Source: Promethearchaeota archaeon
GTDB taxonomy: Archaea > Asgardarchaeota > Lokiarchaeia > Sigyniarchaeales > SOKP01
Direction of reading: 5' to 3'
DNA: 32,000 nucleotides
Assembly (NCBI GenBank): GCA_030606485.1
Contig: JAUWGH010000007.1
Span: 120,001-152,000 of the forward strand
Made by a program: the position numbers and the translations under genes. The first letter of the stretch is position 1. The number at the start of each line of letters is the position of its first letter. Below, one piece after another: positions 12,715-31,954 of the stretch. Under the pieces are notes generated by a model. It was not told the origin of the DNA. It worked only from the letters and a program-made list of their open reading frames with translations, and did not search any database.

Positions 12715-12730
12715 ATAAGAAAGGTGCTCG

Positions 12731-13702
12731 ATTATTAAATGCCCTGTTTGTAACGTTGAGATGGAACAACTCGTTCAAGAAATATTTCAATGTCCAAAGT
12801 GTAAAAAAATAATTAAAGGACGGATTAAAGAAATTGAAAAAAAGAAAGAAGTTGCTATTGGAAAAATTCAAGAGGGAGATTATTTTCATAACAATGCTAG
12901 TTTAAATAAGAAATATGAAATTTGTGAAAAAGGAATTACCATTTCTAAATCCCCAAATAGGTGGGTGGCAGCATTACTCTGTCATAGCTCCTATTTAAGC
13001 AGTTCTAAATATATTAGACTTAGTTGGTGGAAAAAAGAAATAAATACGCATGCAGGCTTTTTCAAAATAACTGAATCTGCAGTATTGAATAATTTAATCA
13101 AAACCTTAGAAAAAATAAATTATTCATTTGACGAATATTGGGGTAATTTTAAAGGATTTGAAAAAAAAAAAAAAGAAACAAAAGAAAAAGCAATTCAAAA
13201 TAAACGCTTAAAAATTCTAAAATATAGAATTCTCGAAAAAAAAATTTGCCCGAATTGTAATAAAAAATTAAAATTTACCAAAAGAAAAACACATTATGAA
13301 TGTGAACATTGTGGTGAGATCATCATCTTGGAATCTCATAATGAACCAATTTTTAATATTGATCCTAAAGATCTCCCATTAGAATTCTCCACAAATTTTC
13401 CTATCAACTTTTACCTCCCCATAGCTGGCATCACTATTAAATGGTTAATGGGAGAATGGAAATCTGTTGTTGTAATATATTCAAATGACAATCCCAATAG
13501 GAAATGGCTAAGATTTTATTCTTGGGAAAGAAATTTACAACAACTATTAAAATACGGATATTATGAAGCTGGTGATGGAGGACAACTATCTTGGACTACA
13601 AAAAAAGGAACAGGCTCACCAAATATTAACGATAAATCAGAAGTCCCTATTTTAATTGATGCTTTAAAAAAATTACAAAAAGAAATAGGTTGGGCTAAAT
13701 AA
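12731..13702 (+). CDS. Tandem (Zn-ribbon + PC4-like) repeat protein; probable ATT start (track start 12761)
   Basis: In-frame upstream IIKCPVCNVE completes the first Zn ribbon with CPKC. The second ribbon is CPNC...CEHC. Two internally similar GITI...W...K.(I/L)R...W...LI.(T/A)L domains follow the ribbons. Confidence 0.75.
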   Translation: MIKCPVCNVEMEQLVQEIFQCPKCKKIIKGRIKEIEKKKEVAIGKIQEGDYFHNNASLNKKYEICEKGITISKSPNRWVAALLCHSSYLSSSKYIRLSWWKKEINTHAGFFKITESAVLNNLIKTLEKINYSFDEYWGNFKGFEKKKKETKEKAIQNKRLKILKYRILEKKICPNCNKKLKFTKRKTHYECEHCGEIIILESHNEPIFNIDPKDLPLEFSTNFPINFYLPIAGITIKWLMGEWKSVVVIYSNDNPNRKWLRFYSWERNLQQLLKYGYYEAGDGGQLSWTTKKGTGSPNINDKSEVPILIDALKKLQKEIGWAK

Positions 13703-16165: not shown

Positions 16166-16184
16166 AGAAGGGGTGTAAGAAAAA

Positions 16185-17261
16185 ATTACATATTCAGATG
16201 ATGAAATTAAAGAAAGGCTTGACAAGTATGGAACGGTTTATTTACCAAATGAAATATTAGAGAATGTTGATGATATATTGGGAAATGAGGTTCTAAAGGA
16301 AAGGCTTGAAGATTTTTTCAGTTCGCTAAAAAGATATAGTGAAGTTGTTGAAAAATTGAAAAAGACGAAATTAGTTCCAAATTTAACTGTCCTCCTATAT
16401 GGGCCACCTGGAACTGGAAAAACTTCATTAACTCGAGCATTTGCAAAGGAATTTGATATCCCATTGTGTGTAGTGGAGTCTGACAGATTAGTTTCTGCAC
16501 TATTAGGTGATACCGTTAAAAATATTAGAAAAGTAGTGGAATTATCAGCTCAGATTGCGGAAGAAAATGGAGCTTTTATATTATTTTTTGATGAAATTGA
16601 CGCGATTGCATCCGAAAGATCGAATATTCACGAAGTAGGCGAAATTAAAAGAGCTGTAATATCTTTCTTACAAATAATTGATAAAATAAATTACTTTGGA
16701 ACACCATTAGCAATTATAGGTGCTACTAACCATCAAGACCAATTAGATTCTGCAATATGGAGAAGATTCACTTTTCATTTGAAATTTGATTTTCCTTCAT
16801 TTCATCTCAGGAAAAAAATAATTGAGTCCTTTATTAATAAAATTAGTAGCGCAAAAATTGGAGTAGATGATGTAATTCTTGGTAGTTTAAACAAAGAGTA
16901 TGAGTTATTAAAAACTAAGGAAGAAAAATTAAAATCTTTAATGAGTAAAGAGAAATCCATACTAGATTCGAATGCATTATGGGATGACAAAAAAATTATC
17001 GAAAATAGAGGAATTTTATTTTCAACGCGTGGATACACAGGTGCAGATTTAGAGCGTGGAGTGAGAGTTGCTCTGTTTAAAGCATTAAAATCTGACATTT
17101 TAACTTATGAAAATTTCGTCCATTCCTTAGAATTAGTAGGAGGTACTAGAATCCATGTTGAACAACAATATTTTTTGAGTGCTTCTGAAAGAAAATATTC
17201 CGGGGATAAAAAAATATTAAGAATAAACCGTAATAATCTTGAAGGTCCTCGTGAAATTTAA
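16185..17261 (+). CDS. Single-domain AAA+ ATPase (classical AAA clade); probable ATT start (track start 16278)
   Basis: Walker A GPPGTGKT, Walker B ILFFDEID, SRH IIGATNHQDQLDSAIWRRF, YTGADLE. The N-linker ENVDDILG lies partly upstream of the track start. SD AGGGGTG is 9 nt before ATT 16185. Confidence 0.93.
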   Translation: MTYSDDEIKERLDKYGTVYLPNEILENVDDILGNEVLKERLEDFFSSLKRYSEVVEKLKKTKLVPNLTVLLYGPPGTGKTSLTRAFAKEFDIPLCVVESDRLVSALLGDTVKNIRKVVELSAQIAEENGAFILFFDEIDAIASERSNIHEVGEIKRAVISFLQIIDKINYFGTPLAIIGATNHQDQLDSAIWRRFTFHLKFDFPSFHLRKKIIESFINKISSAKIGVDDVILGSLNKEYELLKTKEEKLKSLMSKEKSILDSNALWDDKKIIENRGILFSTRGYTGADLERGVRVALFKALKSDILTYENFVHSLELVGGTRIHVEQQYFLSASERKYSGDKKILRINRNNLEGPREI

Positions 17262-17323: not shown

Positions 17324-18391
17324 ATGGAATCAGAGAATATAATCTTTTCTGTAGAAAGAATAAAAGAATTAACTAATTCTATAGATACAATTCAAGGAAA
17401 ATTAAATTTAATTAATAAGTTATATCTCATTTATAAAGAAGCACTAAAAAATTTACTCAAAAAACCAAATCTAATGGAGAATGACAGAATAAAATTTTTT
17501 AATGACTTAGATAACTTATTAGAAGCAATCTATTCAAAATTATCCAAAAACTCTGAATTTAACTTAGAAAATTGGTTATTATTTAAAGATTTACTATTAT
17601 CTCAGCATATACTTACAATAAAAAACATTTTAACAGAAAAAAAATTTTCTCAAGAATCTCTAAAAAAAGTTGGTATTTCATTAATTAAAAACAAGAGAGT
17701 ATCATCTTTTTTAGAAAAAATAAGTTTTATTTTTTCACTCGATATTGATTTTTGGGAATTAATAGTTAATGCATTAAAAAATAATCCTGATTTTTTAAAA
17801 ACCATAAATAAAATAAAAAAATTTTGTCAAAATGAGATGGAACGACTATTAAATATTGAACTAAATAAAATTCCTAAAAACATTGACTATAAAATTATTA
17901 ATGAGTTTAAAAAAGAATTCAAAAAAAAAAATATTTCTTTTAAAGAATTCATGATAACTTCAAAATCCAGATTTCCTAAAAAGAAATTTGCCCGAGAAAA
18001 GATTACTTTAGAAACTAAAAAGAAAAAGAATGAATTTGATAGATTAAAAGAAAAACAAGATACACGATTCAAATCTTATGATAAATTATTTACTCTTTCT
18101 GAAGACGAATTTCAAAGATTAAAACGTAAAAAAAAAAGAAAAAAATTAGATTCTTCATCAAAATTAGAAAAAAAAGAGCATGCCTCTCCTGATAAAAAAA
18201 AGGAGATAGATAAAAAAAAAGAATCAACCCAAACTCCAAAACAAGATATATTTAGCAGAGAAATAAAAGAAAATATTGAAGATGACATCGATCCTATAGA
18301 AGTGATTAAAAAAAGAAAGCAAAAAAAGGAAGAAGAATTTGAAAAATATTTAAATAAAATTCAGAAAAAAACTAAAAGAGGTTCAGACTAA
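17324..18391 (+). CDS. Hypothetical protein: helical N-half, Lys/Glu-rich low-complexity C-half
   Basis: 355-aa ORF with poly-basic stretches such as KRKKKRKK. Confidence 0.75.
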   Translation: MESENIIFSVERIKELTNSIDTIQGKLNLINKLYLIYKEALKNLLKKPNLMENDRIKFFNDLDNLLEAIYSKLSKNSEFNLENWLLFKDLLLSQHILTIKNILTEKKFSQESLKKVGISLIKNKRVSSFLEKISFIFSLDIDFWELIVNALKNNPDFLKTINKIKKFCQNEMERLLNIELNKIPKNIDYKIINEFKKEFKKKNISFKEFMITSKSRFPKKKFAREKITLETKKKKNEFDRLKEKQDTRFKSYDKLFTLSEDEFQRLKRKKKRKKLDSSSKLEKKEHASPDKKKEIDKKKESTQTPKQDIFSREIKENIEDDIDPIEVIKKRKQKKEEEFEKYLNKIQKKTKRGSD

Positions 18392-19953
18392 TTAATTCTA
18401 ATTCATCTATAATAACAATTAAAGATTTTTCAGTGGAGATAAAAAATAAATTTAATATTATTCAAGGCAAATTTCTTTCTCAGGATTTAAATCAACTTCA
18501 ATTAGGAAATTATATCTCCCTTCTTGATGATATTCCAAAAATTAACTTAGAAAAGTTACAAATTTTATATAAAAAAAATTCAAAAGGACAGAAAAATCTG
18601 ATTGACAATATTAATTTTATTGAAATTATAGCAAAATATACTCAAATAACTCAAAAAGATATTGAATTTTTAGATAAATATCTCTCTTTTTTAGAAAGTT
18701 GTATTTCACTCTTAAAATTAAACCAGCTCAATCTTGAAAAGAAAAAATTAAAAACCGAACTAAAAATTGCCCAAGAAAGAAATAAATCAGCAGAAATTGC
18801 TGCTAAAATAACTCTATTAAATAAATTAAATGAATCGATTAATGAATATCATACTAGATTAAAACTTTTTGAAGAGGATTTTTTATCCATCAAAAATCAA
18901 AAAAAAATGCTTGAATTAAATCTCGAGAATTTAAAAAAAACACAAATTATATTGAAAAAAGAACAAAAGGACATTTTTAATCAAATTAATATTCTTACAC
19001 GAGAAGAAGAAAACCAGAGTGATAATCAAAATAAAAAAATTGAAACTTTAAGGAAAAATGCAAAAATTTTAAGAGATAAAATTAACAATCTCAAGCAAAA
19101 AATTGAAAATTCCCAATATAAATTAAATCAAAATATGCCAAAATTTAAAGAATTTGATAAAATTTATCATAACTTAAAAGAAAATCTTGAAATTGATAAA
19201 AAAAAAATGAAAAATCTTCAAATGGAATTAGAAGAAGTTATTGATTTAGATAAATTGGATGAAGAAACAGAATATGGTTTAAAAGAACTATCTTATATAA
19301 GGCCGATAAGCTTAATCAAATCAAGTATTAATAACATCACTAAAGAAATAAAAAAAATTGAAAGTTTCAATCATAAGTATTTTAAAAATGAAAATGATCT
19401 CTTAATAAAGGATTTAGAGCAGTTTAAATCCAATTTAGACGACTTTTTTTCGAAAGAGTTGAAAGAATTCGATATTAATGAGCTTAAAAGCAAAATAAAA
19501 TCTTTAAATAAATTAGGTATTTGGCTATATAAGTTCCAAAAATTACTAAATATTTTTTTGGAAACGATTAATTTAAAAATCTCTATTGATTTTTTTTTTA
19601 ATTTGACACCAAATTTTGCTAAAAATAGTCAGATTATTATAAATTTCAAACGTGTTAAGGAAGAAGCTGTCAAATATGATAATTTGACTACTCCTGAGAA
19701 GGTATTTTTTATTATATGTTTTTATTTAACCATTGAAAGCCTTAAAAATAAGAGAAACATCATTTTCACAAATCTTTCAATACCTAAGGATTATAACAAA
19801 AAAGGTTCTATTTTTAGAACTTTAACAAAAATTATGCCCGTTTTTAATGAAAGTCCAGATTTAAAGGAGAAATCATTAACTTTTCTAATTTCTGGATTTA
19901 AACTATCGAAAGATATCAAAAATGTTCAATTATATAACATAAATAATACTTAA
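18391..19953 (+). CDS. SMC-like coiled-coil protein with degenerate (inactive) ABC-ATPase head; probable ATT start (track start 18433)
   Basis: N-term IITIKDFSVEIKNKFNIIQG resembles the SMC head strands without a P-loop. A long coiled coil follows. C-term LTTPEKVFFIICFYLTI...IIFTNL aligns by eye to LSGGEK...ILDEI. Confidence 0.7.
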   Translation: MNSNSSIITIKDFSVEIKNKFNIIQGKFLSQDLNQLQLGNYISLLDDIPKINLEKLQILYKKNSKGQKNLIDNINFIEIIAKYTQITQKDIEFLDKYLSFLESCISLLKLNQLNLEKKKLKTELKIAQERNKSAEIAAKITLLNKLNESINEYHTRLKLFEEDFLSIKNQKKMLELNLENLKKTQIILKKEQKDIFNQINILTREEENQSDNQNKKIETLRKNAKILRDKINNLKQKIENSQYKLNQNMPKFKEFDKIYHNLKENLEIDKKKMKNLQMELEEVIDLDKLDEETEYGLKELSYIRPISLIKSSINNITKEIKKIESFNHKYFKNENDLLIKDLEQFKSNLDDFFSKELKEFDINELKSKIKSLNKLGIWLYKFQKLLNIFLETINLKISIDFFFNLTPNFAKNSQIIINFKRVKEEAVKYDNLTTPEKVFFIICFYLTIESLKNKRNIIFTNLSIPKDYNKKGSIFRTLTKIMPVFNESPDLKEKSLTFLISGFKLSKDIKNVQLYNINNT

Positions 19954-28988: not shown

Positions 28989-29678
28989 TTATTTTTCCAA
29001 GATGACTCCTAGATGTCCGCCAGCGTAAGAATCTATATGAATTTTTTCTAAGACCTTTAAATTGGCACTTTTTAGAGTATTTAATTCATTTTGAAAAATC
29101 TCTTTTGGTTTTTCTGTACTTTTGATGGATTGCGATTTAATAAATAATATTATCTTTCCGCCTTCTTTTAAGTATAAGTTAGCATTTCTTATTGCAATAT
29201 TTGCCTGATCAGGGTGTGAAACATCTTGATAAATTAAATCCACTGGCTTATAAATTAACATTGAATATTCCTGTGGATTTAATGCATTTCCAAGAATAGG
29301 TATTATATTCTTTCGAGATGAAGTATTTTGAATTAATTGGCGTAAGCTTCTTTCAGAAATTTCAACACCAAATATTAATCCATTAGAAACTATATCAGAA
29401 ATGTGAGAAATCGTAGTTCCAGTAGATGTTCCTAGATATAAACAGGTTGTTTTTCTTTCTAAATATATCTTTTGACTCCCTTTTAAAATTAAAGCTGCTA
29501 ATTTACTTCGATATGGATCCCATAATCGAAATTCTTCATCCATTTTTAGAATTATTTTTTCTCCATAAATTACATTACCTTTATCCAGATTTTTGGTATA
29601 TAATTTTAATTTTTCAGAAGGACCCGATATAAATACATTTACAAATTTAGGATGAGGGCGGATATTTGGTTGAATCAA
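28989..29678 (-). CDS. flpA: Fibrillarin-like rRNA/tRNA 2'-O-methyltransferase
   Basis: VYG-like VIYGE, FRLWDPYRSKLAA, LYLGTSTGTTISHISD, IYQDVSHPDQ. Confidence 0.97.
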   Translation of the reverse strand: MIQPNIRPHPKFVNVFISGPSEKLKLYTKNLDKGNVIYGEKIILKMDEEFRLWDPYRSKLAALILKGSQKIYLERKTTCLYLGTSTGTTISHISDIVSNGLIFGVEISERSLRQLIQNTSSRKNIIPILGNALNPQEYSMLIYKPVDLIYQDVSHPDQANIAIRNANLYLKEGGKIILFIKSQSIKSTEKPKEIFQNELNTLKSANLKVLEKIHIDSYAGGHLGVILEK

Positions 29679-29712: not shown

Positions 29713-30927
29713 TCATCTCTTTTTACTTCTTTTCTTTTTTGATAAATTCTGAGACTTTTTTTGACTCTTTTTTGGTGGATTTGGAAATTTTCGTTTGATT
29801 TCTTCAATCTTTTGATTAACTTCATTTAATAATTGATCTCCTAATAGTTTATCGGAAAAATAATCTAATTTTGCAGCTAATGATATTTTACCAGATAATA
29901 ATCGAGAAATTTTCCCCCTATGCCAAGGTTTTGCAGAACGAATTCCATGCCATTGAAATATAATACCATGCTTTGGAGATTTTGCACTTGATTTTAAGGA
30001 TCTAAATAATGCCCTTTCTGCTCCCAATAACTGAATAGTTGAGGCTGGTAGCATGGCTAACTTTTTAATACTCCCGGCAGAAGCCACTAATTTAGCTCCT
30101 ATTAATGCTCCTACAAGCGTTGTCAAATTAGGGGTTGCTCCATTCATTAATTCATCTAAATCATTTTCCAATCGCGTTCGATATAACTCAATAGATAGAA
30201 TTAAATCGGCATATTTCTGAATATTATCAAGGTCAATCTCCGCACCCATTGAATTTTGAGATTGAGTGATGATCTCGTTCAATGTATAATCTTTAAAAGA
30301 AAATTTTTCTTGAAGGTTCTCTTTAGTAAAATTCTCTCGGTTTCCAATAATTGAAATTAATTTACTAAATAACACATGATCCTCAATAATTTTGTCAGTT
30401 AATTCCGGGAAATGTAATCCATACCACTCTCTAATACGTGTGCTAAATAAATTTATAGTTTTCTTTAGTAAATCAAGAGTATTTATCATTTGAATAATTA
30501 ATATATCATCTTTTCCTGAAGCCCGACTTATTGATTTTTTTGCAAGACTTTCCCCTAATTTTTTCGATCGTTCTCTTATTTGTTCCTCCGTTATTTGAAC
30601 TCCATATTTATTAACACTATTTATCAAATTTAATTTAAACGATTGAATAAGAGGACACGGAACCTCATGTTTTGCATTAAAATTAGAATTCTGATTAATT
30701 AAATTACTTAAATTTGAATTATCAACAATAAATTCATTATACCCATTTTCTGATAACTCCTCTAATAAATATATAAATTCTTGAGGTAGATTATTTTCTC
30801 CTATGAGTCCATAGAATTCAATTATTTTATTAATTTCTCCATTAAAATCTCGAAAATTAATTGGATTCTCTAATTCATCAATTACAAAAATCCCAACTAC
30901 AGTATCTGCAATATAACACTTAATAAT
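29713..30927 (-). CDS. nop5: C/D box RNP protein Nop5 (Nop56/58); ATT start, about 404 aa (track gives only the C-terminal 304 aa)
   Basis: Nop domain REWYGLHFPEL, PASTIQLLGAERALF, PKHGIIF. The frame stays open 100 codons upstream of 30627 (IIKCYIADTVVGIFVIDE...) with no in-frame ATG/GTG/TTG. Confidence 0.95.
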   Translation of the reverse strand: MIKCYIADTVVGIFVIDELENPINFRDFNGEINKIIEFYGLIGENNLPQEFIYLLEELSENGYNEFIVDNSNLSNLINQNSNFNAKHEVPCPLIQSFKLNLINSVNKYGVQITEEQIRERSKKLGESLAKKSISRASGKDDILIIQMINTLDLLKKTINLFSTRIREWYGLHFPELTDKIIEDHVLFSKLISIIGNRENFTKENLQEKFSFKDYTLNEIITQSQNSMGAEIDLDNIQKYADLILSIELYRTRLENDLDELMNGATPNLTTLVGALIGAKLVASAGSIKKLAMLPASTIQLLGAERALFRSLKSSAKSPKHGIIFQWHGIRSAKPWHRGKISRLLSGKISLAAKLDYFSDKLLGDQLLNEVNQKIEEIKRKFPNPPKKSQKKSQNLSKKKRSKKR

Positions 30928-31036
30928 TTAGTCCCCTTATACTATCTTTAAATAATATAAAAATACTTATTATTATAATAATGAGTTCCCTATTAAAAAT
31001 AAACATATCAACACTTGAAAAATTTTAAAAATAATA

Positions 31037-31954
31037 ATGAGTGAATTTTTTAAAAAAATTGCCGAGAAACCATTCATATTGGCTTCTGGTATTCTTGGTG
31101 TTTCTTATTCTAGTATGAAACGGATATTTGAAGGGGGAGCAGGAGCAGTAGTCACAAAATCAATTGGACCAATTCTAAGAAAGGGATATAAAAATCCTTC
31201 AATTATAGAAATACTGCCTGGAACTTTCATTAATAGCGTTGGTCTTGCAAATCCAGGTATAGATAATTTTATTTCAGAGATTAAAGAATTAAAACAGAAT
31301 AATATAACAACTATTGTCTCAGTTTTTGGGGATTCAATAGAAACCTATACCCAGGTAGCAGTAAAGGCCCAAGATGCGGGTGCAGATGCTATAGAATTAA
31401 ATATTTCTTGCCCTCATGCTGAAATATCGATTATTTGTCAAAATAAACAATTAACATATGAATATGTTGTAGCTGTTAAAAAAGAGTTAAAAATACCATT
31501 AATTGTAAAGTTATCTCCAAATGTAACAGATATAGGCGAGATTGCATTAAGTGCTGAGAAAGCGGGGGCAGACGCTATCACCGCAATTAATACAGTAAAT
31601 GCAATGGTAATTGATATTGAAACTCAGAGACCAATTTTATCACATGGAAGCGGTGGTCTTTCTGGGAAAGCAATCCATCCTATAGCTGTAAAAAAAATGT
31701 TTGATCTTTATAAAATTGTAAGAATTCCTATATTTGGATGTGGTGGAGTATTTACAGGGGAAGACGCAATTGAATTTTTCTTGGCTGGCGCTTCTGCTGT
31801 TCAAATTGGTTCCGCTTTATATCAAGATTACAATGCAATAACGAATATTATTAATAGCGCTAAAAAATATTTAGAAGTTCATAATTATAAATCATTCTCA
31901 GATATAGTTGGAAATGCACATAAATTTGAAACTCAGGAGGCTCCAGATTTTTAA
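31037..31954 (+). CDS. pyrD: Dihydroorotate dehydrogenase, family 1B catalytic subunit
   Basis: VVTKS, INSVGLANPG, ELNISCPH, VKLSPN, AINT, GGLSG, GCGGV, VQIGSA. Confidence 0.96.
   Translation: MSEFFKKIAEKPFILASGILGVSYSSMKRIFEGGAGAVVTKSIGPILRKGYKNPSIIEILPGTFINSVGLANPGIDNFISEIKELKQNNITTIVSVFGDSIETYTQVAVKAQDAGADAIELNISCPHAEISIICQNKQLTYEYVVAVKKELKIPLIVKLSPNVTDIGEIALSAEKAGADAITAINTVNAMVIDIETQRPILSHGSGGLSGKAIHPIAVKKMFDLYKIVRIPIFGCGGVFTGEDAIEFFLAGASAVQIGSALYQDYNAITNIINSAKKYLEVHNYKSFSDIVGNAHKFETQEAPDF

Follow-up and report, generated by a model that had tools for sequence, protein, structure and literature searches.

The window analysed here, a stretch of 32,000 nt (positions 120001-152000 of contig C6) from an archaeal genome of 3.75 Mb in 13 contigs (G000; GC content 27-30%), carries on its minus strand the gene for Nop5 and, co-oriented and 34 nt after the nop5 stop codon, the gene for fibrillarin (28989-29678; PF01269, E 2.1e-77), which starts at TTG 29678. 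On the other side of nop5 lies a dihydroorotate-dehydrogenase-like gene (31037-31954, plus strand; DHO_dh, E 2.5e-66) that is divergent from it, which makes nop5 the first gene of its unit. The AT-rich spacer between the two (30939-31036) presumably holds the promoters of both divergent genes; approximately 95 nt upstream of nop5 are conserved within the genus, even at a locus (L002) where the neighbouring gene is a different one. An Rfam scan of the 32,000-nt window gave zero matches.

Read on the minus strand, the start of the gene is ...ATAAGGGGAC TAA ATT ATT AAG TGT TAT ATT GCA GAT..., and the run AAGGGGAC-TAA-ATT-ATT-AAG-TGT forms the head of a frame of 404 codons (30927-29716) that ends at a TGA (29713-29715). 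A Shine-Dalgarno (SD)-like AAGGGGA (30932-30938) is followed by a C (30931), by an in-frame TAA (30928-30930) that closes the frame on its 5' side, and by two consecutive ATT codons, of which the first (30925-30927) is the less likely alternative start, adding one residue, and the second (30922-30924) the most probable start codon of nop5. After AAG (30919-30921) and TGT TAT ATT GCA GAT continues the sequence coding for the N-terminal, fibrillarin-binding domain (30628-30921), which lacks any in-frame ATG, GTG or TTG; the earliest such codon is a TTG (30625-30627), codon 101 counted from the first ATT, where it would specify an internal leucine (Leu101). The rest of the gene (29713-30624) encodes a putative coiled-coil region, then the Nop domain and a Lys-rich tail, and closes with the TGA. 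On re-reading, the letters proved to be exactly those given by an earlier, sequence-only reading of this DNA (AAGGGGA-C-TAA-ATT-ATT-AAG-TGT-TAT-ATT-GCA-GAT), and its count of 100 open codons without ATG, GTG or TTG before TTG 30627 was confirmed. A standard ORF list places nop5 at 29713-30627, with TTG 30627 as the start of a protein of 304 aa.

The 100-codon open stretch at the head of nop5 is not the product of chance. With the base composition found upstream of genes, stop codons are expected about once every 10 codons, and the probability of 100 open codons is ~2e-5 (~2e-4 with whole-genome composition), while the absence of ATG, GTG and TTG over 100 coding codons, with a probability of ~0.024, is somewhat unusual. 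The frame is closed by TAA 30930-30928 and offers no canonical start for the N-domain, which bears out the earlier claim that only ATT can give a full-length Nop5. Two out-of-frame starts, GTG 30919-30917 and TTG 30911-30909, were rejected, as they run into stops within ~5-14 codons. Readthrough or another genetic code was likewise rejected, given two in-frame TAA codons upstream (the second at 30937-30939) and no in-frame ATG beyond them; every examined frame reads cleanly with table 11, with no reassigned stop needed.

The identity of the gene is well defined over its whole length. The C-terminal Nop domain (PF01798) spans residues 151-375 (E 2.9e-63, 213.8 bits against a cut-off of 25.4), and the archaeal Nop5 N-terminal domain (PF21572) matches residues 3-116 with E 2.9e-5 and 24.9 bits, below the gathering score of 27.8; the same domain is present in orthologues of 46-52% identity. 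The Nop5 of S. solfataricus (5jpq_S) aligns with residues 2-401 of the translation (P0001) with E 7.5e-74, and 3id5_A and the P. furiosus Nop5 (3nmu_A) align likewise with the full translation. Within the single full-length alignment, residues 2-100 lie against residues 2-100 of S. solfataricus Nop5, and the central region between the N-domain and the Nop domain is inside the continuous alignment to 3id5_A and 5jpq_S. Residue 2, encoded by the second ATT, falls on Met1 of 5jpq_S and 3id5_A and on the Met of 3nmu_A, and the first 99 residues alone match the P. furiosus Nop5 N-domain (E 1.3e-4), in agreement with the earlier proposal that the peptide corresponds to the archaeal Nop5 N-terminus. 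Named homologues come from Promethearchaeota/Lokiarchaeia and other Asgard groups.

Archaeal Nop5 (aNOP56) is a scaffold protein that joins fibrillarin, L7Ae and a C/D guide RNA in a particle active in 2'-O-methylation, with the Nop domain binding L7Ae and K-turn RNA. The protein encoded here appears to have the same three parts, an N-domain, a putative coiled-coil region and a Nop domain, as the Nop5 of the known box C/D sRNPs (PDB 3id5, 5jpq, 3nmu, 2nnw), and the likeness extends to the alignable residues 2-401 and to the adjacency of fibrillarin in the same operon layout; the start codon is the only difference, with a PF21572 match just under the cut-off. Translated from ATT, the product would be a full-length archaeal Nop5 of ~403 residues, whose predicted N-terminal tryptic peptides are (M)K and then CYIADTVVGIFVIDELENPINFR.

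Start codons of nop5 in related genomes

A protein search of 40 relatives, followed by reading of the DNA at each nop5 N-terminus, answered what the sequence-only reading had left to a comparison of sister genomes. In all four genomes of the genus (G000-G003; 96-100% identity) the start region is AAGGGGAC TAA ATT ATT AAG TGT TAT ATT GCA GAT, and the ATT pair is also present in four further metagenome or MAG contigs (96-99% identity). In about 20 further genera of this family the sequence is ATG-AAA-TGT-TAT-ATT (M-K-C-Y-I), with the ATG at the position of the second ATT; that position is occupied by TTG in G018 and by GTG in G021, and ATG is again found at the nop5 start in more distant families of the order. 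The first ATT has no counterpart in orthologues, where the codon preceding the ATG varies.

The eight genus-level sequences comprise at least six distinct ones, which differ by substitutions and indels elsewhere, such as nearby synonymous changes (ACT/ACA; GTA/GTC/GTG) and substitutions and indels in the upstream spacer. All eight share the AAGGGG motif, the TAA and the ATT pair without change, despite a 5-nt indel directly 5' of the motif. Over the first 100 codons, the N-domain shows few changes within the genus, zero stops or indels, and a pN/pS of 0.2-0.33, which by itself is modest evidence that this region is translated.

A second group of loci extends the comparison considerably. In a distant, Helarchaeota-like nop5 clade (36-38% identity), ATT stands at the Met1-equivalent codon in 8/8 loci read, preceded immediately by TAA and, further upstream, by GAGGG or GGTGAT. 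Seven of the eight reach their first canonical codon 37-126 codons into the frame; at the eighth (L041), the GGTGAT contains an in-frame GTG, four codons before the ATT, that could serve as the start instead. One of the loci is titled Candidatus Helarchaeota Hel_GB_A. Synonymous sites in the N-domain of this clade are saturated (pS 0.7-0.78) and pN is low (0.21-0.25, pN/pS ~0.3), so selection has long maintained the N-domain in a lineage whose nop5 lacks a canonical start, and the ATT has been retained with it. Being conserved among diverged relatives, the nop5 ATT is neither a recent lesion nor an error.

SD spacing and the distribution of candidate ATT, ATA and ATC starts

The 3' end of the 16S rRNA is ...GGAUCACCUCCU, with which AGGGG can pair as an imperfect SD containing one G:U. 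Among 1,198 well-defined ATG starts of the genome, G is enriched at -14..-8, and the G run of nop5, at -12..-9 of the second ATT, falls within this peak. The distance from GGGG, AGGG, GAGG or GGAG to ATG peaks at 8-11 nt, and that from GGTG at 7-9 nt. Measured to the second ATT, the spacing of the nop5 motif is 8-9 nt, equal to the mode that GGGG/AGGG-type motifs show ahead of ATG; measured to the first, it is 5-6 nt, which few ATG genes have. Since SD spacing and the Met1 alignments agree, the second ATT (30924-30922) is favoured: the earlier proposal of a start at ATT is supported, an ATT occupying the Met1 position of the orthologues, and is refined in that alignment and spacing statistics make the second of the pair the likelier start codon. 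SD sites precede only about a quarter of the ATG genes of this genome, and they have been reported as rare in Lokiarchaea (2026 review, PMC12993045).

Frames without an early canonical start are found throughout the genome. Of the non-shadow ORFs with 150 codons or more, 2,630 in all, 91 lack ATG, GTG and TTG throughout their first 30 open codons and 35 throughout the first 50, numbers far in excess of the geometric decay that holds at short distances. Back-extrapolation with a canonical-codon frequency of 3.7% in coding sequence suggests that 5-9% of long ORFs are affected; since pseudogenes and frameshifts are counted too, this range is an upper bound. An earlier SD test over all ORF heads gave a weak signal for ATT, which became clear once the genes were restricted and an out-of-frame control was added. 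In that form, the test covered 210 genes whose first 20 positions hold no canonical codon, scored an SD as a duplex energy of -5 kcal/mol or lower, and compared in-frame codons within the first ten codons with out-of-frame triplets. An SD preceded 36/145 in-frame ATT codons against 20/258 out-of-frame (p = 4e-6) and 20/138 in-frame ATA codons against 10/170 (p = 0.012); for ATC the difference (9/43 against 6/61) was not significant. GGTG lies 7 nt before in-frame ATT and ATA, as it does before ATG, and no such peak is seen with control codons.

Protein domains support this distribution. In at least 11 of the 20 candidates examined a Pfam domain begins before the first canonical codon: examples are SDR (domain from residue 8, first canonical codon 49), ETF-alpha (16 and 33), AOR (12 and 64), SMC_N (21 and 100), a TetR HTH (20 and 37), a ParA-like P-loop (14 and 32) and E2 (from residue ~4, first canonical codon 50). 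At the Met1 position of E2, most genera have ATG. The genus with the nop5 ATT has ATT there as well, and so does genus g4, whose first canonical E2 codon comes at 63; TTG stands in g6 and ATC in a single g11 genome. For SMC, no canonical start is found in G000 and G002, and G001 has ATG. Fibrillarin retains its TTG start in all four genomes of the genus, with ATG in most other genera.

The same SD-TAA-ATT heads occur in 380 kb sampled from two other genera of the family (G014 and G020). In 800 kb of a complete genome from another family of the same order (G032), no SD-ATT signal was detectable (3/33 against 3/49), although single ATT-start candidates exist there. The evidence for the habit thus covers the family and, at nop5, the Helarchaeota-like clade, but not the order as a whole.

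Possible routes to a full-length Nop5

These observations make it very probable that nop5 is translated at full length from a near-cognate AUU, most likely the second ATT, as one case of family-wide ATT, ATA and probably ATC starts behind a strong SD. Pairing between the SD and the anti-SD would position the 30S subunit on the nop5 AUU, and the single ordinary initiator Met-tRNA (anticodon CAU) would read it with a third-position mismatch, placing Met at position 1; the weakness of AUU compared with AUG would probably lower the output of Nop5. Pattern searches found one initiator-type tRNA (C6:44352-44448), with A1:U72, the GGG/CCC anticodon stem, the anticodon CAU and an intron. A special initiator tRNA matching AUU was considered and set aside, as the same searches gave no initiator-like tRNA with another anticodon, within a census that is incomplete because many tRNAs carry introns.

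A full-length Nop5 could also be made otherwise, by re-initiation after a short uORF, by a frameshift from a uORF or by leaderless initiation at ATT, and this is the best of the alternatives, although we consider it improbable. In G000, an ORF of 28 codons begins at ATG 31006, out of frame with nop5, and its TAA (30922-30920) overlaps the second ATT; in G001-type sequences, the TAA that precedes the ATT pair is the stop of a 5-codon mini-ORF beginning with ATG. Neither is maintained: the 28-codon uORF has ATA for ATG in L002 and, through indels, reaches a stop ~35 nt upstream in G001-type sequences, whereas the 5-codon mini-ORF is missing from the G000 type, and the Helarchaeota-like loci have SD-TAA-ATT without a consistent uORF. 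Coupling of termination and re-initiation was rejected on the same grounds, as was a frameshift from the uORF, there being no conserved uORF at the start site and the upstream gene being divergent, not co-directional. As for a leaderless transcript, a conserved TATA-like element, TTTATATT, lies ~34-39 nt upstream of the nop5 start and allows a very short leader; if it is a TATA box, the 5' UTR might be so short that the SD is partly or wholly untranscribed. Of the modes of initiation, the leaderless one is known to tolerate non-AUG codons least, and an SD-guided start is favoured by the way in which, across the genome, in-frame ATT is associated with SD sites at the spacing typical of ATG.

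Initiation at TTG 30627, giving an N-truncated Nop5 of 304 residues with the upstream 100 codons as an untranslated relic, is very unlikely. It is what a standard ORF caller returns, and public calls in close relatives are shortened similarly, starting at internal codons (P0002, 396 aa; P0003, 386 aa; P0005, 307 aa; the last two 83-89% identical). But such a relic would need to have escaped every stop and indel over 100 codons, at ~27% GC, in six or more distinct sequences (P ~2e-5 to 2e-4), and the stretch shows purifying selection in the genus (pN/pS 0.2-0.33); the Helarchaeota-like clade, too, has kept this arrangement, at pN/pS ~0.3 and with synonymous sites saturated. Moreover, the supposed relic is the fibrillarin-binding part of the protein in the solved complexes 3id5 and 3nmu, the fibrillarin gene is co-located, and no SD-like sequence precedes TTG 30627. 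Lastly, an assembly or sequencing error masking an ATG, a negligible prospect that the sequence-only reading had named as fatal to its proposal and for which nothing was found beyond the fact that errors are possible in principle in a 13-contig assembly, is excluded by the identity of AAGGGG and ATT-ATT-AAG in G000-G003 and four other metagenome or MAG contigs that differ at other sites, at least six of these sequences being distinct.

Initiation at AUU, as the preferred reading of nop5, could be part of something wider. Tentatively, and with rather more doubt than confidence, we suggest that AUU, AUA and AUC starts behind strong SDs are a systematic, selected trait of this Lokiarchaeia family and part of the wider class, covering several percent of genes, among them eukaryote-signature ones such as the E2 ubiquitin-conjugating enzyme and SMC, and that the nop5 ATT was fixed independently in two orders, where it would adjust the amount of this C/D RNP scaffold protein to that of fibrillarin, with its own weak TTG. 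Two independent fixations at nop5 may hint at such dose control; they could also be coincidental, because several percent of genes are affected.

Significance and comparison with known systems

The practical consequence at this locus is that automatic annotation strips nop5, a universally conserved gene, of its whole fibrillarin-binding domain, with calls of 304-396 residues instead of ~403, and up to several percent of this Asgard family's genes probably suffer similar N-terminal losses. The Asgard protein catalogues that are used to trace eukaryotic origins would be distorted to that extent, E2 and SMC being among the affected genes. To our knowledge, near-cognate starts in archaea have been considered negligible, and gene callers in common use recognise no starts besides ATG, GTG and TTG. 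In reporter work with Haloferax, only AUG, GUG and UUG reportedly worked well, and we therefore know of no experimental precedent for the use of AUU in archaea. The results also raise a testable question: how stringent the eukaryote-like archaeal factors are towards the start codon when an SD holds the ribosome. If systematic AUH initiation is true, the start check by aIF1 and aIF2 would be looser in the closest archaeal relatives of eukaryotes than in other studied archaea.

Initiation at AUU is in itself a known kind of event, and full-text literature searches found no published report of ATT, ATA or ATC starts in Asgard archaea. In bacteria, AUU starts are known from E. coli infC and pcnB, and NCBI translation table 11 includes ATT, ATC and ATA among its alternative starts. 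As in these two genes, a conserved near-cognate AUU here occupies the AUG position behind an SD, and would be read by the normal initiator tRNA. In E. coli, however, only a handful of genes are concerned and infC is autoregulated through IF3, whereas in this case up to several percent of genes may be involved, in an Asgard archaeon with the eukaryote-type factors aIF1, aIF1A and aIF2 and with no known regulatory loop. Starts at ATT, ATA and ATC are frequent in the very AT-rich Mollicutes (the start set of NCBI table 4) and in mitochondria, and the likeness lies in an AT-rich genome (27-30% GC) in which changes from ATG to ATH starts appear to be tolerated and fixed, although in another domain of life, with other initiation machinery and an otherwise standard code. 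Near-cognate initiation in eukaryotes, where stringency is set by eIF1 and eIF5, is a third point of comparison, since aIF1 is the homologue of eIF1 and a relaxed third-position discrimination would give the pattern described here; there, however, scanning from the cap leads mostly to CUG, GUG and ACG in a Kozak context, whereas in this archaeon the help would come from the SD.

The nop5-fibrillarin unit in the host's genus

At the nop5 locus of one member of the genus (L002, G003:C237), the sequence beyond ~95 nt upstream of the nop5 start bears no resemblance to the corresponding sequence in the other members, which suggests, from sequence comparison, a rearrangement adjoining a conserved block comprising the promoter and leader of nop5. 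A 28-codon ORF lies on the minus strand at window positions 30920-31006, running from ATG 31006 to TAA 30922-30920, and this stop overlaps the second ATT of nop5; the ORF is not conserved within the genus. The four genomes of the genus all have TTG as the start codon of the fibrillarin gene (window 29676-29678, minus strand), whereas ATG is used in most other genera compared (L001-L030). Together with the inferred ATT start of nop5, this would make both genes of the unit weakly started in the host's genus.

Other candidate ATT starts in the window

On the plus strand, the open frame of an AAA-ATPase gene (16167-17261; PF00004, E 4e-28) begins past TAA 16176-16178, its head reads GAAGGGGTG-TAA-GAA-AAA-ATT, and the first canonical codon (ATG, GTG or TTG) lies 33 codons in. 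The ATT at 16185-16187 is likely a second ATT start in the window besides that of nop5. The head of a zinc-ribbon protein gene (12719-13702, plus strand) reads TAA-GAA-AGG-TGC-TCG-ATT-ATT-AAA-TGC-CCT-GTT-TGT, and its CPVC zinc knuckle is encoded upstream of the first ATG (codon 14); the second ATT (12734-12736) has GGTG 7 nt upstream, and the start 'ATT ATT AAR TGY' is common to this gene and nop5. A 525-codon ORF (18376-19953, plus strand), with no Pfam match, overlaps the 3' end of the gene before it and reads AAGAGGT...ATT; its first canonical codon is a GTG 19 codons in, and the ATT at 18391-18393 is a possible start.

Starts elsewhere in the genome and the initiator tRNA

The first codon of the gene for the E2 ubiquitin-conjugating enzyme, a eukaryote-signature protein (G000:C10:380536-381048 in the host genome, G000), varies by genus within the order, being ATG, ATT, ATC or TTG (L104-L133), and in several genomes of family f2 GGTG may be either a Shine-Dalgarno site for ATT or contain the start itself, GTG. 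The SMC gene (G000:C8:382091-385549; compared over L074-L076) lacks a canonical start ahead of the Walker A motif in two genomes, G000 and G002, and in both of them ATG, GTG or TTG first appears 100 codons in; in G001, of the same genus, an ATG is present at codon 11.

Only one initiator-type tRNA was found in the host genome (G000:C6:44352-44448, minus strand; anticodon CAU, A1:U72, GGG/CCC anticodon stem), and it is interrupted by an intron of ~21 nt that follows the anticodon loop position. Intron-blind searches overlook many tRNAs of this genome, plain ARAGORN recovering 15 and Rfam 31.

ATT in a distant nop5 clade

In a distant, Helarchaeota-like clade of nop5 (L040-L045, L052 and L053; for example L053:1501, Helarchaeota Hel_GB_A contig SUPS01000036.1), codon 1 is also ATT and is preceded by GAGGG or GGTGAT. 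At seven of the eight loci a canonical codon first appears 37-126 codons in, and L041 has an additional in-frame GTG four codons upstream of the ATT. The ATT has been retained in this clade despite saturated synonymous sites.
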